A DNA stretch of 64,000 nucleotides from an uncultured Actinomycetota bacterium (GTDB taxonomy: Bacteria; Actinomycetota; Thermoleophilia; RBG-16-64-13): NCBI GenBank assembly GCA_963790415.1, contig CAWBOK010000003.1:799273-863272 (forward strand), read 5' to 3'. The notes under the pieces were generated by a model. It was not told the DNA's origin. It made no database searches and saw only the letters and a program-made list of their open reading frames with translations. This document shows, piece after piece, positions 3,259-61,124 of the stretch; positions within the stretch are counted from its first letter, which is position 1; each line of letters opens with the position of its first letter. The translations under genes and the position numbers were made by a program.

Positions 3259-3285
3259 GCGGCGCGGCCCTCGGGGCCGCGCCGC
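3259..3285 (-). terminator. GC-rich 12-bp perfect hairpin without U-tract
   Basis: GCGGCGCGGCCC-TCG-GGGCCGCGCCGC. It lies between repeat copy 1 and the AI-2E gene. Its function (terminator or RNA stabiliser) is inferred. Confidence 0.3.
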
Positions 3286-3330
3286 GTTGAAACTCCGCTC
3301 CGTTACGGATCGTGCCGAAGGATCTCCTAG

Positions 3331-3495
3331 CAGGCTGTTGAAAAGTGACGCTTCGCCATCAGGGCGCGATGGGCACGCGTGAGACAAGGACGCAGGGAGC
3401 GCTCGTAGCAGCGCTACGTGCGCGACCGAGGACGTCGTATCGCGCCGGCCAGTGCGTTCTGGGGGCCAAGGCTTCGATCTGCAACAGCCTCCTAG
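3331..3495 (+). repeat. Nested-palindrome interspersed element, long form (165 bp), copy 1
   Basis: Near-identical to 17182..17346. Termini are CAGGCTGTTGAA...CAACAGCCTCCTAG, flanked by CTAG on both sides. The terminal TAG (minus strand, 3492-3494) is the stop codon of the DUF1269 gene. Confidence 0.9.
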
Positions 3496-3983
3496 GCTTC
3501 GGCGCCGTGCAGTGCGTCCTGGATCTCCTTCTCCTGCTCTTCGGAGAGGGAGGTCTTGATCACCGTGCCGCCGTACTTGGAGAGACCGGCGAGGGCTTTG
3601 TCGGTGGTCATCTGCTCGAGGATCATGAAGAGCGCCGAGGTGCCGGGCTTGATCTGATCCCGGACCTGATCCTGGAACTGCTTGTCGATGCTCGACTTGC
3701 CCAGCTTGCCGAAGAGCGCCCCAAGACCGGCGCCGATGGCCATACCCAGGACTGGCACGAAGAAGAGGATCCCGAAGAAGAACCCCCAGAACATGCCCCA
3801 GGTGGCTCCTCCGCCGACGATGTGCTGGTTGGTGATGGTCTTGTACTTGCCTTCCTCGTCCCGGATGATCGCCGCGATGGCATCGGGCTGGATGACCAGG
3901 TCTTTGGCCAGGCGTCCGGCCTCGTCCATGGCCGCGAGGGCCGTCGTGGTGTCGTCGTAGCCGATTGCGATCAGATCTGCCAT
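3492..3983 (-). CDS. DUF1269 family membrane protein
   Basis: MADLIAIGYDDTTTALAAMDEAGRLAKDLVIQPDAIAAIIRDEEGKYK... followed by a Gly-rich TM segment, matching the DUF1269 pattern. Confidence 0.75.
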   Translation of the reverse strand: MADLIAIGYDDTTTALAAMDEAGRLAKDLVIQPDAIAAIIRDEEGKYKTITNQHIVGGGATWGMFWGFFFGILFFVPVLGMAIGAGLGALFGKLGKSSIDKQFQDQVRDQIKPGTSALFMILEQMTTDKALAGLSKYGGTVIKTSLSEEQEKEIQDALHGAEA

Positions 3984-4061
3984 GCTTCTTCCTTCCGTCC
4001 GATTCCTAGAACGGGTTAGAAATCCCCGATTCAGCAGGGGTGTAAACCACCGTCCGCCTGC

Positions 4062-5262
4062 TCAGCTCGTCTCCGTCGTCGAATCTGGGAGCGTCGTCGA
4101 AGCCGGGAGCGTCGTCGCGGATGGCCCCTTGGAGATGGCGACGGTCACGGTGGCCCCCGGGGCCGTCTGCAGACCCTTCGACGGGGCTTGGCCCAGAACC
4201 TGACCGGACGGAACCGTGTCGCTGTAGGCCTCCAACACTTCTACCACCAGGCCCGCGGCCTCCAGGGTGGTCGTGGCCTCGGCCTGTGTCATGCCTTTGA
4301 CGTCCGGGATGGTCACGGCGTTCGCGGGCGCGGGTCCGTTGGATAGGGTTATCTCGATCGTCACGCCCGCGTCCGCATACACACCGCCGGGAGGGGTTTG
4401 CGCCAGAACGGTGCCCGTGGCAACGGTCGGGCTGTAGGCCTGATCGGTGCCTGACTGCGAAACCGGCGTCTTTCAGGAGCTTGGTTGCGTCCGCCTCACT
4501 CTTGCCCACCGTGTCCGGCACCTGAGCTACCGACAGCGGGCCTTTCGAGACGCTCAGAGTGACGGCGGCGCCGCTACCCAGCGCGACACCCGCTGCCGGG
4601 GACTGGCTCGCCACCTGCCCGGAGGGTGTGTCGCTGAATACTTCGGTGGCCGCTGTTGTGAACCCGGCGTCTTTGAGGGCCTTCTCGGCATCGGCCTTCG
4701 TCTTGCCTACCACGTTGGGCACGGTCGTAACAGCCGGGCCCATTGACAGCTTGAGGTCGACGCCCGCGCCGAGGGCGGCGATCTCCTTGGCCGGCGGTGT
4801 CTGGGCGATCACCTGGCCCACCGGGATCTTCGCGTCGGCGATCTGCTCGACTTTGCCCACGCGCAGTCCCGCCGCCTGGATGTCGGTGATCGCGTCTCCC
4901 TGGGTCTTGCCCACCACGTCCGGCGTTGGCACCCCTGCGTCACCCGCGAGGACGATATCCACGGCGGCGCCTTTTTCCACCGTGGTCGCGGCGGCCGGCG
5001 TCTGGTTCAGCACCCTCCCTTTTTGGACGGTCGTCTGGACGCCGTTCTGATAGACCACCCACACCAGCTCGAGCCCGCCCTTGCCCAGGGCATCGCGGGC
5101 TTCTTGCTCGGTCAAGCCGAACAGGTTGGGAACGGCCACCTCCTTGGGCGACGAGCATCCGCCAAGCAGCAGCGCGGCCATCGCCAGGACGGCACCCAAT
5201 CCCACCGCCAACCTCCTTGCGGATCGACGGACGGCGTGGTCCGGGGGTGATGTGCGGTTCAT
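4062..5262 (-). pseudogene. Secreted lipoprotein made of five PASTA domains, no catalytic domain; one frameshift
   Basis: Signal peptide plus lipobox LLGGC. Five repeats of the VPxVVGxTxxxAxxxLxxAGL...G.V..Q.P type. The frame changes near 4448-4456 (track ORFs 4006..5262 and 4062..4382 join as ...KDAGFAV/GTDQAYSPTVATG...). AAGGAGG RBS. Confidence 0.75.
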
Positions 5263-15524: not shown

Positions 15525-17981
15525 CTACGATGCCACGCCTGCATGGTGCGTCTCTTCGACAGACGCGCCGAGTTCCGCGGCAAGCTGGCTGACTATGCGA
15601 TGGATCCGGATCAGGGCCGATTCGCCGCTGGTCCGAACCTGCGCTCGTAGTTCGCTGCCTGGTTGAGACAGGCCGGCGAGGCGCTCCTGCGCCAGCATCC
15701 AGGATCGCACGGAGATCTCTTGGTCGCTCGGCGTTGCAGTTGGGGTCTGGCTTCTTTCGCCTCTGAGCAGAGGCATGATCGCCTCGATGTCTCGGTGCAC
15801 AAGCGCCCGCGCCGTGCGCATCCAGTCGGCGGCGGCAGCAGCAGAATCGTCCGCCAGGTTGGCATCCTCGAATGCGGCGTGCCCCAAACGCGTGACCTCG
15901 GCCTGCAGCGCGGCGATCCGCGTCCCTTGCTGGGTCAACGGGCTCTGCGCCTGCAGCAACGGATTGTTCTCGAAAGCGACGCCGGGCAATGTCTGCTCGA
16001 CCTGGGCGTAGGTGGCCGCGACCTTCGCCTGCGCAGCGTCAAGGGGCTGCGCGCCCTCCCGGTTGGTCACCGTATCGACAAAGGCGGAGACGTATCCGTC
16101 CACCGCGCCGAGAAAACGGGCGGCGGCCACTTTGAACCGGTCTCCGGCGTGGATCGGAAAGACGAACACGACCACCAACGCCGCGACCAACCCGCCAAGC
16201 AGAGTGGTCGCTGGGCGGGCGACCAGCAGGTCCATCGCCTTGACTCCCAGGCGCGTGTACACCGTGACGAAGCCGACGTTCAGCCAGAAGACCATCCGCG
16301 GGTAGGAGAGCGGTCCCGAATAGACGGTCAAGAAGATGCAGATTGTCGCGAACAAGACGACGAACGCCGTGTTGTCGGGCGTCAGCAGCGCCAGCGCCAC
16401 GCCGACCGTGACTCCGGCCACCGTTCCTGCGACGCGCATCATCATCCTACGTAAGGACTCGCCGGTCGAGCCGGCGATGACCACGAAGGCGGTCCAGAAG
16501 ACCCAGTTGGAATGGTCCACGTTCAAGCAGCCGCGCCACCACCATGGCCAGACCGGTCGCCAAGACGGCTTGGGTGCCCAGCGCCGTCGTCGGGTGCACG
16601 TGCACGTTGCCAAAGAGCCGCATCAGCGGTGGGAGCGGAGGCCTGTCTCGTACTGCGGTGCCGACATCAGCCGGCGGCTCGGTCGGCTGTCCGGCACCTC
16701 GGTGGAGCGTCTCGATCTTCCGCACTTGGTCCACGGACTGCGCTACCTGAACGCTTCCACCTACGAGATGGGATGCGGCAGCCACCCAAGGAGCCGGCGG
16801 AACATCCGTTGTCCCCGGTCTGTCGGCGAGCGCGGCACTCGCGTAGGCCCGCACCTCAGTCTGCAGCGCCGTGCTTTCGGCAGCCAGCGCCTGCATGCTC
16901 TCTTGGCTGCCGGCGATCAGTGCCTCCTGCAACGACCGCAGGCCGCGTCCGAGCGGCGCCCGGATCTCGGTGGGAATGTCGGAAAGGCTCGACCAATCGC
17001 CTACGCCTTCGACCATCCGAGCCAACCCTTGTTCTGCGTTGTACAAGCGCCAACTGCAGTTGACCGATCTGTGCCTGCGTCCAGCCGCCGGGCGCAAGCA
17101 CGCCGGGAAAGTGGCCCTCGATAACGCGGCGACTGAGCCTCACACGACTGAGACGCCGGCGCAGATCTTTGTCGACCCTCGCAGGCTGTTGAAGAGCGAC
17201 GCTTCGCCGCCAGGGCGCGATGGGTAAGCGCGAGACAAGGACGCAGGGAGCGCTCGTAGCAGCGCTACGTGCGCGACCGAGGACGCCGTATCGCGCCGGC
17301 CAGTGCGTTCTGGGGGCCAAGGCTTCGATTTTCAACAGCCGCCTAGCTCCCTCACCCGGTGTCGGTACTTTCTCGAGCGCGACGGCCACGGCGGCGACGG
17401 TGGCGGCAGTGGCGTGATAGAGCGACCGAATACCTTTGCGCAGCGACCGCTGCGGGTCATAGGGCAGAAACACGAACTGCCACAGCCAGAGGCTGACCAC
17501 GCCGATCGCCACGGCGAACACGTACCAGGCCAGGTTGCTCCATCCGACGCCCGAGCCTTCGGCGAAGTACAAGCTCATGGTCAGCACCAGGAGCAACTCG
17601 CCGGGGCGCAGACCGCGCCGCCGCACTACGTATGATGCGAAGATCAGCACCAGCAAGACCGCCGGATAGAACCGGGCGCTCCCTTGCAACAGGCCCGCCA
17701 GCTAGCAGCGCCAGGACCGACATCGCCGTGCTGAGCGCCTGCGTCCACTGCCGCTCGGTGCGCCGAGCATCGACGATGACGAGCGCGTTGATGAAGCAGA
17801 TCGCGACGGCGAACAACCCTACGGCCGGCATCGGTCGATCGGCGAACCATACGATGACCAGATGCGCGGTCAACCAGGCGGTCAGCGCCGCGAGCGCGGC
17901 GCGCGCGCCTTGGTAGCGGCGCAGTGCACCCGGGTCGGCGGCGTCGAGCCGGTCGTCGAACGCGGCCCACCGAGTACTCAT
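15525..17981 (-). pseudogene. FUSC-family (fusaric acid resistance/aromatic acid exporter-like) membrane protein, disrupted
   Basis: Four track ORFs (17457..18242, 16856..17689, 16447..17097, 15525..16613) together form one FUSC-like protein. Frame changes lie near 17689-17698, 17045-17060 and 16521-16533, and there is a 165-bp repeat insertion. The second membrane domain reads NVDHSNWVFWTAFVVIAGSTGESLRRMMMRVAGTVAG. Confidence 0.7.
17182..17346 (+). repeat. Nested-palindrome interspersed element, long form (165 bp), copy 2, inside the FUSC gene
   Basis: About 11 mismatches to copy 1 by manual alignment. It is read through as 55 codons (ARRLLKIEALAPRTHWPARYGVLGRARSAATSAPCVLVSRLPIAPWRRSVALQQP) in the host frame. 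Confidence 0.9.
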
Positions 17982-40254: not shown

Positions 40255-40539
40255 ATGAGCTTGATCAGCACGCTGATTCTCGGCTTTCTAGTGGGTGTTA
40301 TCGCCCGTGTCATCACGCCCGGTGATTTCTTCCGGCACTACAGCGGCGTCGTGTCCTGGGGCATCTCTATTCTTGTCGGCCTCGGTGGGGCCTTCATCGG
40401 CTTCCTCGTCTTTCACGTCTTGCTCGGCTGGGGTGACGCCAGCATCTTCAATTGGGGCAGCATCATAGGCTCGATCATCGGCGCCGTGATCCTGCTCATT
40501 ATCCTGACCTTCGTCCTCAACCGGAGGAGAAGAGCCTAA
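40255..40539 (+). CDS. GlsB/YeaQ/YmgE-family (transglycosylase-associated) small membrane protein
   Basis: MSLISTLILGFLVGVIARVITPG...GSIIGSIIGAVILLII. GGAGGAGG RBS. Confidence 0.8.
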   Translation: MSLISTLILGFLVGVIARVITPGDFFRHYSGVVSWGISILVGLGGAFIGFLVFHVLLGWGDASIFNWGSIIGSIIGAVILLIILTFVLNRRRRA

Positions 40540-40542
40540 GCT

Positions 40543-40573
40543 GCGATGGGGCGCCTGTCGGGCGCCCCATCGC
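40543..40573. terminator. Bidirectional 13-bp perfect hairpin between convergent genes
   Basis: GCGATGGGGCGCC-TGTCG-GGCGCCCCATCGC, lying 4 nt after the glsB-family stop codon (40537-40539) and 61 nt after the M48 stop. Confidence 0.55.
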
Positions 40574-40633
40574 GCTGGGCCGGAAGTCGTCGAAATCGCA
40601 TGACCGACGCCGGTCCGGCCTGCCGCCGCGACG

Positions 40634-41885
40634 TCACTGCGTCGGCGGCGACCTCCGCGCCGTGAGAGCGGCGACGCGCTCGACCAGCGGCGGATGGGAG
40701 TAGTGCAGGAGCACGTAGAACGGATCCGGCGTCAGGTTGGTGAGGGTGCTCCTCGCCAGGGTGACGAGGGCCGTCACCATCGCTTCCGGGTCGCGCGTCG
40801 TGGCCGCCGCGAAGGCGTCGGCCTGGCGCTCGTGCCGGCGCGAGAGGGCAAGTAGTCCCACCGAGAGCGCCGTTTCCACCGCTGTCAGCAAGAGAGCCGA
40901 AGAATACCAGCCCCGCGTAGACAGAAGGCTCCTCCACACCGAACGCGGCGAAGAGCCCCTCCCGGGTCAGGAACTGGGAGAGCAGGTAGAAGAGCACTCC
41001 CATGTGCACCACCGACAGGACCAGGCCCTGCAGAACGTGCCGCTTCTTGTAGTGGCCCACCTCGTGGGCGATCACGGCCACCAACTCCCGCGTGCCGTGC
41101 TGCGCGATCAGGGTGTCGAAGAGGGCTATACGCTTGTTCCGGCCGAAACCGGTGAAGAAGGCGTTGGCTTTCGTGGAGCGGCGGGAGCCGTCCATGACCA
41201 TGACGGAGCGCACGGGGAACTCCACCGAGGCCGCATAGTCGGAGATCGCCGTACGCAACTCCCCATCTTCCAGCGGGGTGAAGCGATTGAAGAGCGGCAT
41301 GATCCAGGTGGGTACCACGAACTCCAGCGCCACGGAGAAGGCCACCACGACCGCCCACGCGTAGACCCAGGCGAGAGCTCCGGCGTACGCAAAGAACGCG
41401 ATCACCACCGCCAGTGCCGGCGCGCCCAGCACGACCGCGAGGAGTAACCCCTTGACCATATCGGCCAGGAACGTTCGCACCGTGGTCCGGTTGAACCCGT
41501 ACCTTGCCTCGACCACGAACGTGCCGTAGACCACGAAGGGCAGGTCGATGAGGCCGCGGGCTGCGCCCAGTACGGCCACGAAGACCAGGCCTTGCGTGAC
41601 CGGGCCGCCCGCCATCCCCGACACCCAACCGGCCAGCCAGGCGAAGCCCCCGAAGCCCCAGAAGGCCAGCAAGGCCGCCAGATCTACCAACTGCGACACC
41701 CTGCCCAGCCGGGTGCGCTCCCGCGTGTAGCGCTGGGAGCGGCGGTAGGTATCCGGTTCGTACACCGTCTCGAAGCCGGGCGGAGGCTCTTCGCGTAGGG
41801 CGCGCAGGTTACGTATCTCGGCGACCCGATCGACGGCGTAGTCGGCCACCAGGGCCACGGCGATGATGACGGCGTAGGCGTTCAT
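40634..41885 (-). pseudogene. M48-family (Ste24/HtpX-like) zinc metallopeptidase, one frameshift
   Basis: HEVGHYKKRH (HExxH). Frame change near 40888-40904 into ...LSRRHERQADAFA...HYSHPPLVERV (track ORF 40634..40939). Confidence 0.75.
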
Positions 41886-41976: not shown

Positions 41977-42396
41977 TCAGAGCCGCAGGTCTCTCGGGTC
42001 TACGCGCACGAGCCCGGGGATGCGGTCGAACCCTCGGTCGGTGCTGACGATCTGGGAGAGGCCGTGTCGCCGGGCGACGGCTCCGTGCAGGAGGTCGCGG
42101 GAGGAGACCCCTGAGTCTGGCGGGATGCGGTCGCCGAGCGCGCGGGCTTCGTGGAGGTCCTCGATCTCAATGGGCAGCACCGACCGAGTGCCGGCCAGCA
42201 CAGCCTCGAATACGGCGCTCAGGTCGTCGGTCCGCCTGATGCTTCGGTAGCGATGGAGTATTTCTTGCAGGGTCTCGACGCTGGTGACCAGGGACACCCG
42301 GCCTGCGGCCCCGGCGCTCAGCAGCGCAGCGCAGGGCTCCTTGAACGGACTCGGGGAGCCGCAGGCGTATATGAAGACTGAGGTGTCGACGTACAT
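41977..42396 (-). CDS. vapC: VapC-type PIN-domain toxin
   Basis: MYVDTSVFIY (Asp4), SVETLQE, SSRDLLH and STDRGF acidic residues of the PIN fold. Confidence 0.8.
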   Translation of the reverse strand: MYVDTSVFIYACGSPSPFKEPCAALLSAGAAGRVSLVTSVETLQEILHRYRSIRRTDDLSAVFEAVLAGTRSVLPIEIEDLHEARALGDRIPPDSGVSSRDLLHGAVARRHGLSQIVSTDRGFDRIPGLVRVDPRDLRL

Positions 42397-42406
42397 CAGC
42401 CGCCGG

Positions 42407-42481
42407 CAGGCTGCTGAAAAGTGACGCTTCGCCGCCAGTGCGTTCGTGGGGCCACGGCTTCGGCTTTCAGCAGCCTCTTAG
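42407..42481 (+). repeat. Nested-palindrome interspersed element, short form (75 bp), copy 3, between vapB and vapC
   Basis: Same termini as the long form (CAGGCTGCTGAAAAGTGACGCTTCGCCGCCAG / TGCGTTCGTGGGGCCACGGCTTCGGCTTTCAGCAGCCTCTTAG). The central 90 bp is absent. The vapB TAA stop lies in its last 4 nt. Confidence 0.85.
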
Positions 42482-42729
42482 CCAAGGTCGTATGTCTCGT
42501 CCAGGAGACGGGCGAGTTCCTCCGGATCGGCGGGGACCGGCGCCTCGAGCGCCGTGGCTCGGGCGATGGCGGCCAACCGCCAACCCGCCTCGTCCTCGTC
42601 CAAGATTCGGGCGATAGACTCCCGCACGAGGGCGGCCACGGTGGTATGTTGCGCGGTCGCTCGCTGTTCGAGGCGCCGAAGTGCGAGGCTGTCGACTCGG
42701 AGTTCCAATCTGGCGTCCAGTGTACCCAC
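42478..42729 (-). CDS. vapB: Ribbon-helix-helix (CopG/VapB-type) antitoxin
   Basis: 83 aa. The N-terminal beta-strand/helix pattern LELRVDSLALRRLEQRATAQHTTVAALVRESI. It lies upstream of vapC. Confidence 0.7.
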   Translation of the reverse strand: MGTLDARLELRVDSLALRRLEQRATAQHTTVAALVRESIARILDEDEAGWRLAAIARATALEAPVPADPEELARLLDETYDLG

Positions 42730-56935: not shown

Positions 56936-58573
56936 ATGGCGGTCAAACGGAGCGGCAAAGGCAGATGGGTGCGGACGCTCGTCGTCAGTGGGCTCGTGGT
57001 AGCGCTCGCGGTTGCCGGGGTCTTTGCGTTCCGGGTCTGGCGGGGTGGGGGTGCGTCTCCCGTCACCTACGTGACCAAGCCGGCGGCGAAGACCACGCTC
57101 ATCTCCTCGGTGTCGGGTACTGGAAACGTCACCGCAGGAAGCACGTCTACGGTGATCCCCACCGTCAGCGGCGAAGTGACCGGTCTCTCGGTCGCGCTGG
57201 GCGACACGGTGACCCAGGGACAGGTGCTCTTCGTGCTCGTCAATCCGCAACTGGACCTGGACGTGGCGAGCGCCGAAACGTCGGTCGAACAGGCTGAGGA
57301 CTCGGTCGACAAGGCCGAGCTTTCGGTGGAGCGGGCCGAGCAGAATCTGAGTGACCTAGAAGACCGGCAGGAGTCACAATCGGCCGACCTGCAGATGACT
57401 CCGACGGTGGTGTACGTCTCGTACACCCCCACGACTGAGCCGCACAACCACGACCACACCTCCTACGACTGCCACTCCCACGACGACTCGCCCATGACCA
57501 CGTCCACGACCACGCCCCCGACGACCACGCCCCCGACCACCACTCCCCGACGACCACCCCTCCGCCCACGACGCCTCCCAGCACGACACCCCCCGACGAC
57601 CACGCCCCCGCCCCCGATGCCTCCCACGACAACTCCACCGACGACAGCTCCCCCGGGCGGCGGCGGGACTACTCCCACGACGGCCAAGGAGGTGACCGAC
57701 CTCGACATCGCCGAGGCCGAGCAGCAGGTCGCGAGCGCCAAGGTGCAGGTCACGGTGGCCGAGAACAACCTCGCTTCCGCCGAGTATGCCTTGACCCAGG
57801 CCGAGGCAGAACGCGGCGGCGCGCACGGTCGTGGCGCCGACCGACGGCACGGTCACGGAGCTCAACGTGAGCGACGGCGATCAGGTGGGTAGCAGCGGCA
57901 CGTCGGGTTCCACGACCTCCAACGGACAGACAGGCGGCCGGGCACGGGTGGGGACACCGGCGGCGCGACCTCGTCCGGGTCGAGTACCTCTTCGTCCAAC
58001 AGTTCGACCGCCGCGGTCATCACCAACCTGAGCAGTTTCGAAGTGACGCTGGCCCTGGGAGAGACCGACGTTGTGGCCGTCCAGAAGGACGACAAAGTGA
58101 CTCTTACGTTCGATGCCTTGCCCGACCTGACGCTCGTGGGCAAGGTCGATCGCGTTGCGTCCATCGGCACGGTGAACTCGGGTGTGGTCAGCTATGACGT
58201 GACCGTGGTTCCCGGTGTGGGCAACGAGAATGTGCGCGCAGGCATGACCTCGACCGCCGATATAATCACCGAGTCCAAGGTCGATGCGCTCGCCGTCCCG
58301 AGCAGCGCAGTCAAGACCGATCAGAGTGGCAACACGTACGTGTTGGTGCTCAAGAACGGAGAGCCGGTGTCCCAGACCGTCCAGACGGGCATGACGACCG
58401 ACACCTACATAGAGATCACGGGTGGGCTCGCCGAAGGCCAGGCTGTGGTGACTCAGACGGTCGGTGGAACCACTGCGACGACCGCGCGGGGTGGAGGGGG
58501 CGGCATTCTGGGCGTGGGCGGAGGACCAGGCGGCGGATTCCCCGGGGGCGGATTCCCCGGGGGCGGGGACTGA
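56936..58573 (+). pseudogene. MacA/HlyD-type periplasmic adaptor with inserted Pro/Thr-rich linker and Gly-rich tail; multiple frameshifts
   Basis: Lipoyl-like SGEVTGLSVALGDTVTQGQVLFVL, a coiled coil, then a P/T-rich segment (57420-57660) in which the frame drifts at C-runs. Further frame changes lie near 57812-57822 and 57936-57944. The C-terminal beta-barrel is VTLTFDALPDLTLVGKVDRVASIG..., ending GGGPGGGFPGGGFPGGGD. Confidence 0.7.
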
Positions 58574-58618
58574 GCGTCGTCTGCCGCGCTCGGCGGAGCG
58601 GCGACTGCCGGCGCCCCG

Positions 58619-60599: not shown

Positions 60600-61124
60600 G
60601 TGAAACGTTCATCGACCATCGTGTTGGCAGTGGCCGTGGGTGTTGTCGCCCTGGCCGCGGGGCTGTTCGTCGGTATGAGCTACGGCAAGGGCCACCCGTC
60701 AGTGGAGACGGCCATGAAGACGGTATCCGACCTCACCCCCGAGCAGATGGCGCAGCTGCGAACCTCGGGCGGCGGATTCCCCAGTGGCGGATTCCCCGGT
60801 GGCGGATTCCCCGGTGGGGCCGCGGGCGGTGGCAACGGGAACGCCCGGGGCGGATTCACTGCCGGCAGTATCGTGTCCAATGATGGTTCGACCATCACCA
60901 TCAAGATGAATGACGGCAGCACCAAGTTCGTGCTCTACTCGGGCTCGACCACCATCCGGAAGAGCGCGGAGGGCACCAGTGCGGACCTTGTTGCCGGCGA
61001 GAACGTGGTCGTCACCGGCTCGGCAAACTCCGACGGGAGCATCACGGCCACGCAGATCCAGCTCGGCGCGCTTCCGGGCGGCCCAGGCGGCGGTGGCCAA
61101 GAGACCACCCCGCCCACGACTTGA
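60600..61124 (+). CDS. DUF5666-like secreted/anchored protein with GGFPGG repeats
   Basis: GTG start at 60600, 6 nt after AAGGGAGGA. N-terminal TM, (GGFP[SG]G)x3, then GSIVSNDGSTITIKMNDGSTKFVLYSGSTTIRK...VVVTGSANSDGSITATQIQL. Confidence 0.6.
   Translation: MKRSSTIVLAVAVGVVALAAGLFVGMSYGKGHPSVETAMKTVSDLTPEQMAQLRTSGGGFPSGGFPGGGFPGGAAGGGNGNARGGFTAGSIVSNDGSTITIKMNDGSTKFVLYSGSTTIRKSAEGTSADLVAGENVVVTGSANSDGSITATQIQLGALPGGPGGGGQETTPPTT

Follow-up and report, generated by a model that had tools for sequence, protein, structure and literature searches.

Correia elements of Neisseria, ERIC/IRU of enterobacteria and RUP of pneumococcus are the classic bacterial miniature inverted-repeat transposable elements (MITEs) that form long hairpins, and the Rickettsia palindromic elements (RPE) are palindromic repeats that can sit in-frame in protein genes and be translated. 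Here we describe an interspersed hairpin element found three times in a 64,000-nt stretch of DNA (the window) from an uncultured Thermoleophilia bacterium of the Actinomycetota (contig CAWBOK010000003.1, positions 799,273 to 863,272), together with its relatives in other genomes. Judged from sequence comparison, the element is most probably a non-coding, non-autonomous MITE derived from an insertion sequence (IS) of the IS5 family. The family is real and apparently undescribed, while its kind is well known.

Like Correia, ERIC and RUP, the element is roughly 100-170 bp long, has terminal inverted repeats and TA-containing flanks, exists in long and internally deleted forms and occupies transcribed intergenic positions, with host mRNAs carrying a long hairpin. 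At the same time, it has no sequence relation to any of them, lives in another host phylum and would be moved by an IS5 transposase rather than by an IS630-like one as for RUP. Its resemblance to RPE lies in a copy within a FUSC-family gene of the window, another within a helicase-domain protein (P0282) and a third within a frame that joins a membrane and a nuclease domain; unlike RPE, its copies are mostly intergenic or at stop codons, their open frame is not conserved, and ends and target indicate a DDE transposon.

A preliminary description of the window had likened the element to REP/BIME and MIRU repeats. It does share with REP/BIME/REPIN and MIRU an interspersed, mostly intergenic and palindromic character, and MIRU units likewise overlap the codons at which neighbouring genes start and stop. 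However, REP/BIME/REPIN units are imperfect palindromes of 20-40 nt that carry a conserved GTAG, are confined to extragenic DNA and go with a RAYT gene that the repeats flank, whereas the element has no GTAG-type unit (the tetranucleotide is CTAG), no RAYT gene nearby and copies inside coding sequences. MIRU units, of 46-101 bp, are arrayed in tandem inside operons; here all copies are single units, with no tandem array at copy 1, the sole copy scanned with TRF. Unlike either group, the element has true terminal inverted repeats and duplicates its target as a DDE transposon does. The comparison therefore gave way to that with an ordinary DNA-transposon derivative, because the 15-nt terminal repeats are identical to those of IS5-family elements, the flanks are CTAG, CTAA or TTAG, and the empty site holds a single Py-T-A-Pu (YTAR) tetranucleotide. 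IS5-family ISs of the NF033581 type and their MITE derivatives have the same 15-nt repeat, CAGGCTGCTGAAAA(G/A), the same three flanks, the same single-YTAR empty site, and likewise size variants and nested copies. The element differs from these ISs in having no transposase gene, in an interior (the 90-bp core hairpin) unrelated to the IS interiors compared, and in an inner hairpin kept by compensatory changes.

Copies, forms and distribution of the family

Copy 1 (3331-3495) and copy 2 (17182-17346) are each 165 bp long and differ at exactly 11 positions, in agreement with the earlier count of about 11, and copy 3 (42407-42481) is a 75-bp short form without the central 90 bp. All three are on the + strand, as had been stated, and each of the two end motifs has three matches in the window and none in 100 shuffles. 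The short form had been said to break at a GCCAG direct repeat; the breakpoint does lie in GCCAG/CCGCCAG microhomology, which is clear in copy 2, but copy 1 reads ATCAG there. Further copies, diverged ones included, were not found in the window by nhmmer (E<=10). Nothing marks copy 1 as a founding copy, a label that was an artefact of a sample of three.

A 25-nt left-end pattern, GGCTGYTGARRAGYGACGCTTCGCC, was searched among 185,579 species genomes and matched 31 loci, on both strands, in at least nine metagenome-assembled genomes (MAGs), all labelled Thermoleophilia, Gaiellales or uncultured Actinomycetes/Actinomycetota. Five of these matches are in the single-contig 4.6-Mb MAG FR_37 and 16 in one fragmented Gaiellales MAG, and six stop at contig ends. 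A profile made from 19 long copies revealed further, more diverged copies in the same loci (nhmmer), so the proposal of an interspersed nested-palindrome family held up. As far as sampled, the family is confined to uncultured Thermoleophilia. When proteins were compared all against all, dozens of predicted 'proteins' proved to include the translation of the element, RLLKIEALAPRTHWPARYGVLGRARSAATSAPCVLVSR.PIAPWRRSV.LQQP, and therefore gene callers often read through copies.

The forms span 45 to 329 bp, none with a transposase open reading frame (ORF). Deletion forms of 45, 63, 66-70, 96 and 105 bp each have a different internal deletion, and short forms may arise by deletion at internal microhomologies. 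In composites of 325-329 bp (L007 3626-3950, L014 371-699 and L020 548-874) the apex of a standard copy is occupied by a sister element; such forms would arise by new insertions into CTAG sites inside copies. The nested sister represents a sub-family with the same core and other ends (GAGCTCG...CGAGCTC), and the inner copy in L007 is flanked by CTAG on one side and CCTGG on the other, where some copies naturally have CTAG. In FR_37, at about 2.638 Mb (L019 5774-6867), two inverted copies enclose a HepT-like toxin gene (PF20797) together with a 126-aa ORF upstream of it, an arrangement that resembles a small composite transposon. Counting the PIN toxin operon in which copy 3 sits, the element touches two toxin-antitoxin loci, which may be chance.

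The plasmid collection gave no match to the element by BLASTN, and the element pattern had none in the IMG/VR viral collection. Likewise, Rfam gave no match in the window at gathering thresholds, as the preliminary description had supposed, and at E<=10 only the plant miRNA-precursor hairpin MIR1437, whose 25.7 bits against a gathering threshold of 168 are noise. A literature search on Thermoleophilia MITEs and on MITEs associated with CTAG and stop codons found nothing relevant. Judged against Rfam and the literature searched, the particular MITE family thus appears undescribed, and to that extent the earlier remark that it is no named IS, MITE or Rfam family stands; at the level of the IS family it does not, since the ends are clearly those of IS5-family ISs.

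Terminal repeats, target site and mobilisation

Across copies the consensus reads cCTAG followed by CAGGCTGCTGAAAAGTGACGCTTCGCC at the left end and GGCTTCGaTTTTCAGCAGCCTC followed by CTAG at the right. The right-end consensus is TTTTCAGCAGCCTC followed by CTAG (reading CAGCCTC/CTAG at the junction), opposite cCTAG followed by CAGGCTGCTGAAAAG, and the terminal inverted repeat CAGGCTGCTGAAAAG or its complement is present at both ends in 30+ copies. Most flanks are CTAG; CTAA and TTAG are less frequent, and some flanks have decayed. We scanned soil metagenome contigs for the 15-nt end plus CTAG, excluding the element's own interior, and the resulting counts are lower bounds: at least 29 elements of 1.25-1.52 kb from other organisms have CAGGCTGCTGAAAAA at both ends, and these ends recur in at least 36 MITE-like elements, unrelated to it, that measure 95-339 bp (95-185 bp in 35 cases). 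This suggests that one IS5 lineage has spawned many MITE families across soil bacteria. The contigs bearing CTAG followed by CAGGCTGCTGAAAAA (L042-L161) range in G+C from 0.43 to 0.73.

Among the long elements two ORFs were tested against profiles, those in L096 (369 aa) and L090 (380 aa), which scored 270 and 280 bits on the IS5 family transposase model NF033581 (cut-off 140) and also carry Pfam DUF772 and DDE_Tnp_1; three more high-G+C examples were assigned to the same kind of protein by eye, and L067 is also among the ISs with matching ends. IS5 duplicates Py-T-A-Pu, most commonly CTAG (15 CTAG, 3 CTAA and 3 TTAG of 24 targets; PMC5493358). The flank left free by our search was, among the 29 long elements listed, CTAG in 19, CTAA in four and TTAG in two; in the element and the ISs alike CTAG thus far outnumbers CTAA or TTAG, which is the published IS5 target spectrum.

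The same flanks raise the question of an IS630/Tc1-mariner MITE, in which a DDE transposase would insert at the TA inside CTAG and duplicate TA only, the outer C and G coming from target and element ends. A passage of PMC2170065, citing Tenzen & Ohtsubo 1991, states that IS630-family elements insert into and duplicate TA and that they prefer TA within CTAG, and the central TA is indeed the part of the flank best common to both sides, the outer bases often differing between left and right. However, every examined full-length element with these repeats encodes an IS5-family (NF033581) protein and not an IS630/DDE_3 one, and the mix of flanks equals the published IS5 target list, so we regard an IS630 origin as very unlikely. 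For the IS5-derived element we infer a target duplication of either 4 bp or TA only.

Evidence for insertion comes from copy 1, which is an insertion because close relatives hold the empty site. Three of them (L033, L034 and L036), whose DUF1269 protein is 94% identical to that in the window, read GAAGCC TAA G TCGGCACGG at the end of that gene, while on the same strand the window reads GAAGCC TAG, then the element, then CTAG GAGATCCT TCGGCACGA. Read on the + strand of the element, the relatives have a single TTAG at the DUF1269 stop where the window has CTAG on each side, and DUF1269 stops at the same codon with or without the element. The preliminary description was thus correct in placing CTAG on both sides of copy 1 (3327-3330 and 3492-3495), with the terminal TAG as the DUF1269 stop.

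Taken together, the element is short and without transposase, has terminal inverted repeats, occurs as dispersed copies (three in 64 kb), is polymorphic for insertion and has autonomous same-ended elements elsewhere, all of which are marks of a MITE. ISs coding for a DDE transposase of the IS5 family have matching ends, and the element's target is Py-T-A-Pu with CTAG preferred, which marks it as IS5-derived. We propose that such a transposase, supplied from elsewhere in the cell, would bind both 15-nt terminal inverted repeats (CAGGCTGCTGAAAAG and its complement), excise or copy the element and insert it into Py-T-A-Pu, preferably CTAG, leaving the tetranucleotide on both sides. Where the CTAG holds a stop codon, the duplication would rebuild it, and the gene would be unharmed for that reason; where it lies in the frame xCT/AGx, a copy free of stops could be read as an in-frame peptide insertion. 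The autonomous partner presumably resides within Thermoleophilia and would mobilise the element in trans from the same genomes.

Several points weigh against this reading. No IS5-family transposase of the matching group was found by tblastn in the 64-kb window, in agreement with the earlier statement that the window holds no transposase, or in 41 related loci (L001-L041, about 260 kb), and a search for a partner IS between paired copies (L019, L006 and L032) and, by terminal inverted repeat and tblastn, in all loci gave none. Full-length ISs that share these ends are from other organisms, with nothing of the element in them, and this also applies to the contigs fetched by transposase similarity (L162-L169). 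The match between element and ISs is limited to the 15-nt repeat and the flank. Moreover, the left side of copy 3 has no YTAR, and where the flanks of a copy are not CTAG they mismatch each other, as they also do in six of the 29 full ISs listed; such flanks fit poorly with a clean 4-bp duplication without later decay. Beside the left flank of copy 1 there are seven bases (AGGATCT, 3319-3325) with no counterpart in L033, L034 or L036, which are either an unrelated indel or an insertion footprint. Finally, DDE cut-and-paste transposition needs only the ends, and so leaves the compensatory changes in the inner hairpin, and the excess of G·U pairs on one strand, unaccounted for.

The hairpin and its strand bias

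Whichever strand is taken, the whole element folds as one long imperfect hairpin, with an energy of -88.1 kcal/mol (z = -4.0) for the + strand and of -75.2 kcal/mol (z = -3.2) for the - strand. The core forms the inner part of this hairpin, with an apical CGTAGC-AGC-GCTACG stem-loop, and the nested palindromes noted earlier are real. The terminal inverted repeats and the covarying T..A or C..G pair at the ends were also recovered: the pair is C-G in 16 of the 19 long copies and U-A in three. In the consensus hairpin of these copies, which has 58 pairs with 96.5% of cells paired, 16 pairs are changed on both sides, as compared with 5.5 +/- 1.5 in shuffles (0 of 500 reach 16) and 0-6 in slid controls, confirming that the hairpin is kept by compensatory changes.

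The two strands are not equivalent. The strand written CAGGCTG-> gives the more stable fold in 24 of 26 copies, with a mean advantage of 12.5 kcal/mol over its complement. Its consensus includes five G·U pairs but not one A·C, with 114 G·U against 10 A·C cells; among minority variants, 16 pairs have G·U and nine A·C. The G·U excess is suggestive only, because cells are not independent events. The orientation of copies with respect to local GC skew is 16:18, without bias, and copies have no fixed orientation to genes (see below); that the asymmetry in folding goes with neither kind of orientation argues against both a role in host mRNA and a single-strand mechanism acting on the lagging strand.

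A one-strand bias of this kind would fit a single-stranded intermediate, and with it a REP/REPIN-like element, that is, a single-strand hairpin with xTAG at each end moved on single-stranded DNA by a RAYT (Y1 HUH) protein; the element, a single long and imperfect palindrome that carries (C)TAG at either end, has the right outline. On the other hand, the arm sequences, as read, contain no short hairpins of REP type as separate units, IS5-family ISs have identical ends, some copies lie within coding sequences, and the even orientation to GC skew does not agree with it. No HUH gene lies between or beside the paired copies in L019, L006 and L032, where the genes are the HepT-like toxin and its partner ORF, nitronate-monooxygenase-like and glyoxalase-like ORFs (as read from translations) and others. 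We therefore consider mobilisation by a RAYT highly improbable.

The compensated pairs would also be expected if the element were primarily a structured RNA or regulatory hairpin with a function of its own, as transcript stabiliser, terminator, processing site or small RNA, and had multiplied with its structure under selection as RNA, and the G·U pairs confined to one strand, as well as the diverged sub-families that keep the core while their ends differ, agree with this. At the same time, copies occur in both orientations to the genes that run into them, and either strand is therefore present in host transcripts; several forms have lost the core; a scan at copy 1 found no promoter-like or terminator-like site within the element, and it belongs to no Rfam family. 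Presence or absence among close relatives and insertion within a gene fit selfish insertion better, and selection on an RNA is accordingly a doubtful explanation, with only a small chance of being right.

Within the preferred account of an IS5-derived MITE, candidate causes for the conservation of the hairpin are a fold-back role in mobilisation, conversion between the arms, or an effect at the RNA level. Compensatory changes, strand bias and a core common to sub-families with different ends could also mean that the 90-bp inner hairpin is a functional single-stranded module, of RNA or DNA, for example one that fold-back MITEs need in order to mobilise efficiently, or a host-exapted hairpin that IS5 machinery has spread to stop codons and in-frame into proteins; this is a tentative idea and, in our view, an unlikely one.

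Host genes, stop codons and reading frames

Table 1. Positions in the window of the three element copies, their parts and flanks, and the genes beside them
Feature	Position	Strand	Remarks
Copy 1, long form, 161-bp body CAGGCTGTTGAAAAG...CAACAGCCTC	3331..3491	+	nhmmer 180.8 bits; empty site in relatives; lies in the 3' untranslated region of DUF1269, after its stop codon and before the GC-rich hairpin native to the gene
Copy 1, left flank CTAG (target-site duplicate)	3327..3330	.	consensus of 30+ copies
Copy 1, right flank CTAG	3492..3495	.	CTA at 3492-3494 is the TAG stop of DUF1269 on the - strand
Copy 1, left terminal inverted repeat CAGGCTGTTGAAAAG	3331..3345	+	family consensus CAGGCTGCTGAAAAG matches the IS5-family repeat CAGGCTGCTGAAAAA
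Copy 1, right terminal inverted repeat (reverse complement GAGGCTGTTGCAGAT)	3477..3491	-	
Copy 1, core of about 90 bp, missing from the short form	3358..3447	+	bounds ambiguous within GCCAG microhomology
Copy 2, long form, within FUSC-family gene	17182..17342	+	read through as 55 extra codons
Copy 2, left flank CTCG, degenerate CTAG	17178..17181	.	- strand GCG AGG (Ala-Arg), like GCT AGG opposite
Copy 2, right flank CTAG	17343..17346	.	
Copy 3, short form, 71-bp body without core	42407..42477	+	between antitoxin-like gene and PIN toxin gene, one operon
Copy 3, left flank CCGG	42403..42406	.	YTAR no longer recognisable
Copy 3, right flank TTAG	42478..42481	.	TTA at 42478-42480 is the TAA stop of the upstream 83-aa gene
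DUF1269 membrane protein gene	3492..3983	-	stop codon in flanking CTAG; PF06897 on 94%-identical orthologue
GC-rich hairpin native to the DUF1269 locus	3259..3285	-	downstream of DUF1269; kept in element-free relatives
FUSC-family membrane protein gene, host of copy 2	15744..17960	-	four successive frames in this assembly
PIN-domain toxin gene downstream of copy 3	41977..42396	-	PF01850
Antitoxin-like gene (83 aa) upstream of copy 3	42478..42729	-	TAA stop within TTAG flank

The genes around the three copies are listed in Table 1. Downstream of DUF1269, at 3259-3285, there is a GC-rich inverted repeat (CGGCGCGGCCC-TCG-GGGCCGCGCCG), which is probably the gene's own terminator-type hairpin. As it is conserved in relatives without the element, copy 1 must have been inserted upstream of it. 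Copy 2 interrupts a gene rather than ending one: the 755-aa homologue P0243 aligns on both sides of it in one frame (BLASTP, query 1-98 and 170-214), and the 55 residues encoded by the element have no counterpart in P0243. Its junctions, GCT AGG and GCG AGG, both encode Ala-Arg, which is the duplicated CTAG in the xCT/AGx frame. An empty site for copy 2 was sought through orthologues of the neighbouring genes and was not found, the contigs being too short to reach the site or non-syntenic. At copy 3, the ATG of the PIN gene (42394-42396, first base 42396 on the - strand) begins 10 nt past the element, and the same short copy occupies this site in a relative that is about 94% identical (L001).

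CTAG is about six-fold under-represented in this genome of 66% G+C, where the window has 34 sites and 202 would be expected. About 16 copies are entered by a gene that terminates within the flank or slightly beyond it, on the right side in about nine (for example, copies 1 and 3 of the window and those in L010, L016, L017, L024 and L031) and on the left in about seven (for example, L027, L029 and L031); in some of them the gene stops within the first 15 nt of the element, at the TGA of CTGCTGA. Convergent genes end in both flanks in L031 and, by the first rough gene caller, in L027. Many surviving insertions would be exactly on stop codons because CTAG is rare and holds TAG on both strands. 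The simpler idea that CTAG sites are mostly stop codons was rejected, as only 5 of the 34 sites in the window are stops of rough gene calls, which makes survival a better explanation than target distribution for the enrichment of copies at stop codons; the bias more likely reflects survivorship of harmless insertions.

In 20 long copies the read-through frame is open in 10 on the + strand and in eight on the - strand, and the spacing from flank to flank is 165 bp in 12, 166 bp in five and 161, 164 and 167 bp in one each. We therefore rejected the idea that copies are selected to keep a frame open or a length in multiples of three, and the earlier observation that all lengths are multiples of three turned out to reflect a sample of three. 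The same sample had suggested that every copy is transcribed in the same sense; across loci copies occur in both orientations to neighbouring genes, and a fixed sense relative to transcription was rejected as well. Copies within ORFs (copy 2, L028 and the helicase-domain protein P0282) keep the frame. In L028 (1-1976, - strand) a single open frame encodes a multi-pass membrane domain, a full copy of the element and an endonuclease/exonuclease/phosphatase domain (PF03372). It represents either a read-through fusion that the insertion brought about or two genes that became one when a stop was lost.

Several genes in the window are frame-broken, all on the - strand: the FUSC-like gene (15744-17960), whose frame shifts near 17702, 17060-17109 and 16524 in the alignment to its homologue, a PASTA-repeat gene (4006-5262) and an M48 peptidase gene (40536-41885). 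The latter two have nonsense C-termini here and intact orthologues in L033 and L001. The breaks, including those in the FUSC gene, are either long-read indel errors or pseudogenes. In that they suggest long-read errors, they are the one feature that could favour explaining the copies as an artefact of assembly or duplication. However, copies 1 and 2 differ at 11 positions, gene contexts are unrelated, the same family occurs in independent MAGs from several projects, and copy 3 is kept at its site in an independent assembly; the independent assemblies refute an assembly artefact, and we give an artefactual origin practically no credence.

Other repeats were seen in the window. Tandem repeats of 15 nt (GGCGGATTCCCCGGG-like) are present at 58502-58578 and 60756-60832, 2.2 kb apart, a region that looks like a Pro/Thr-rich repeat lies at 57441-57632, and an RNA-binding-domain protein (1503-1904, - strand) has a Gly-rich tail.

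These results give a name and a proposed mechanism to a repeat that breaks short-read assemblies, as the six matches at contig ends illustrate, and that misleads gene callers in MAGs of Thermoleophilia and Gaiellales. The family offers a clean case of a CTAG-specific transposon reaching stop codons in a high-G+C genome while leaving genes unharmed, and its copies are ready markers with which strains of an uncultured soil lineage can be typed and insertions dated. As a by-product, one 15-nt IS5-type end emerges as common to many IS and MITE families across soil bacteria. In other respects the element is a hairpin MITE of a well-known kind, and its strand-biased, compensated inner hairpin is the only lead toward something new.

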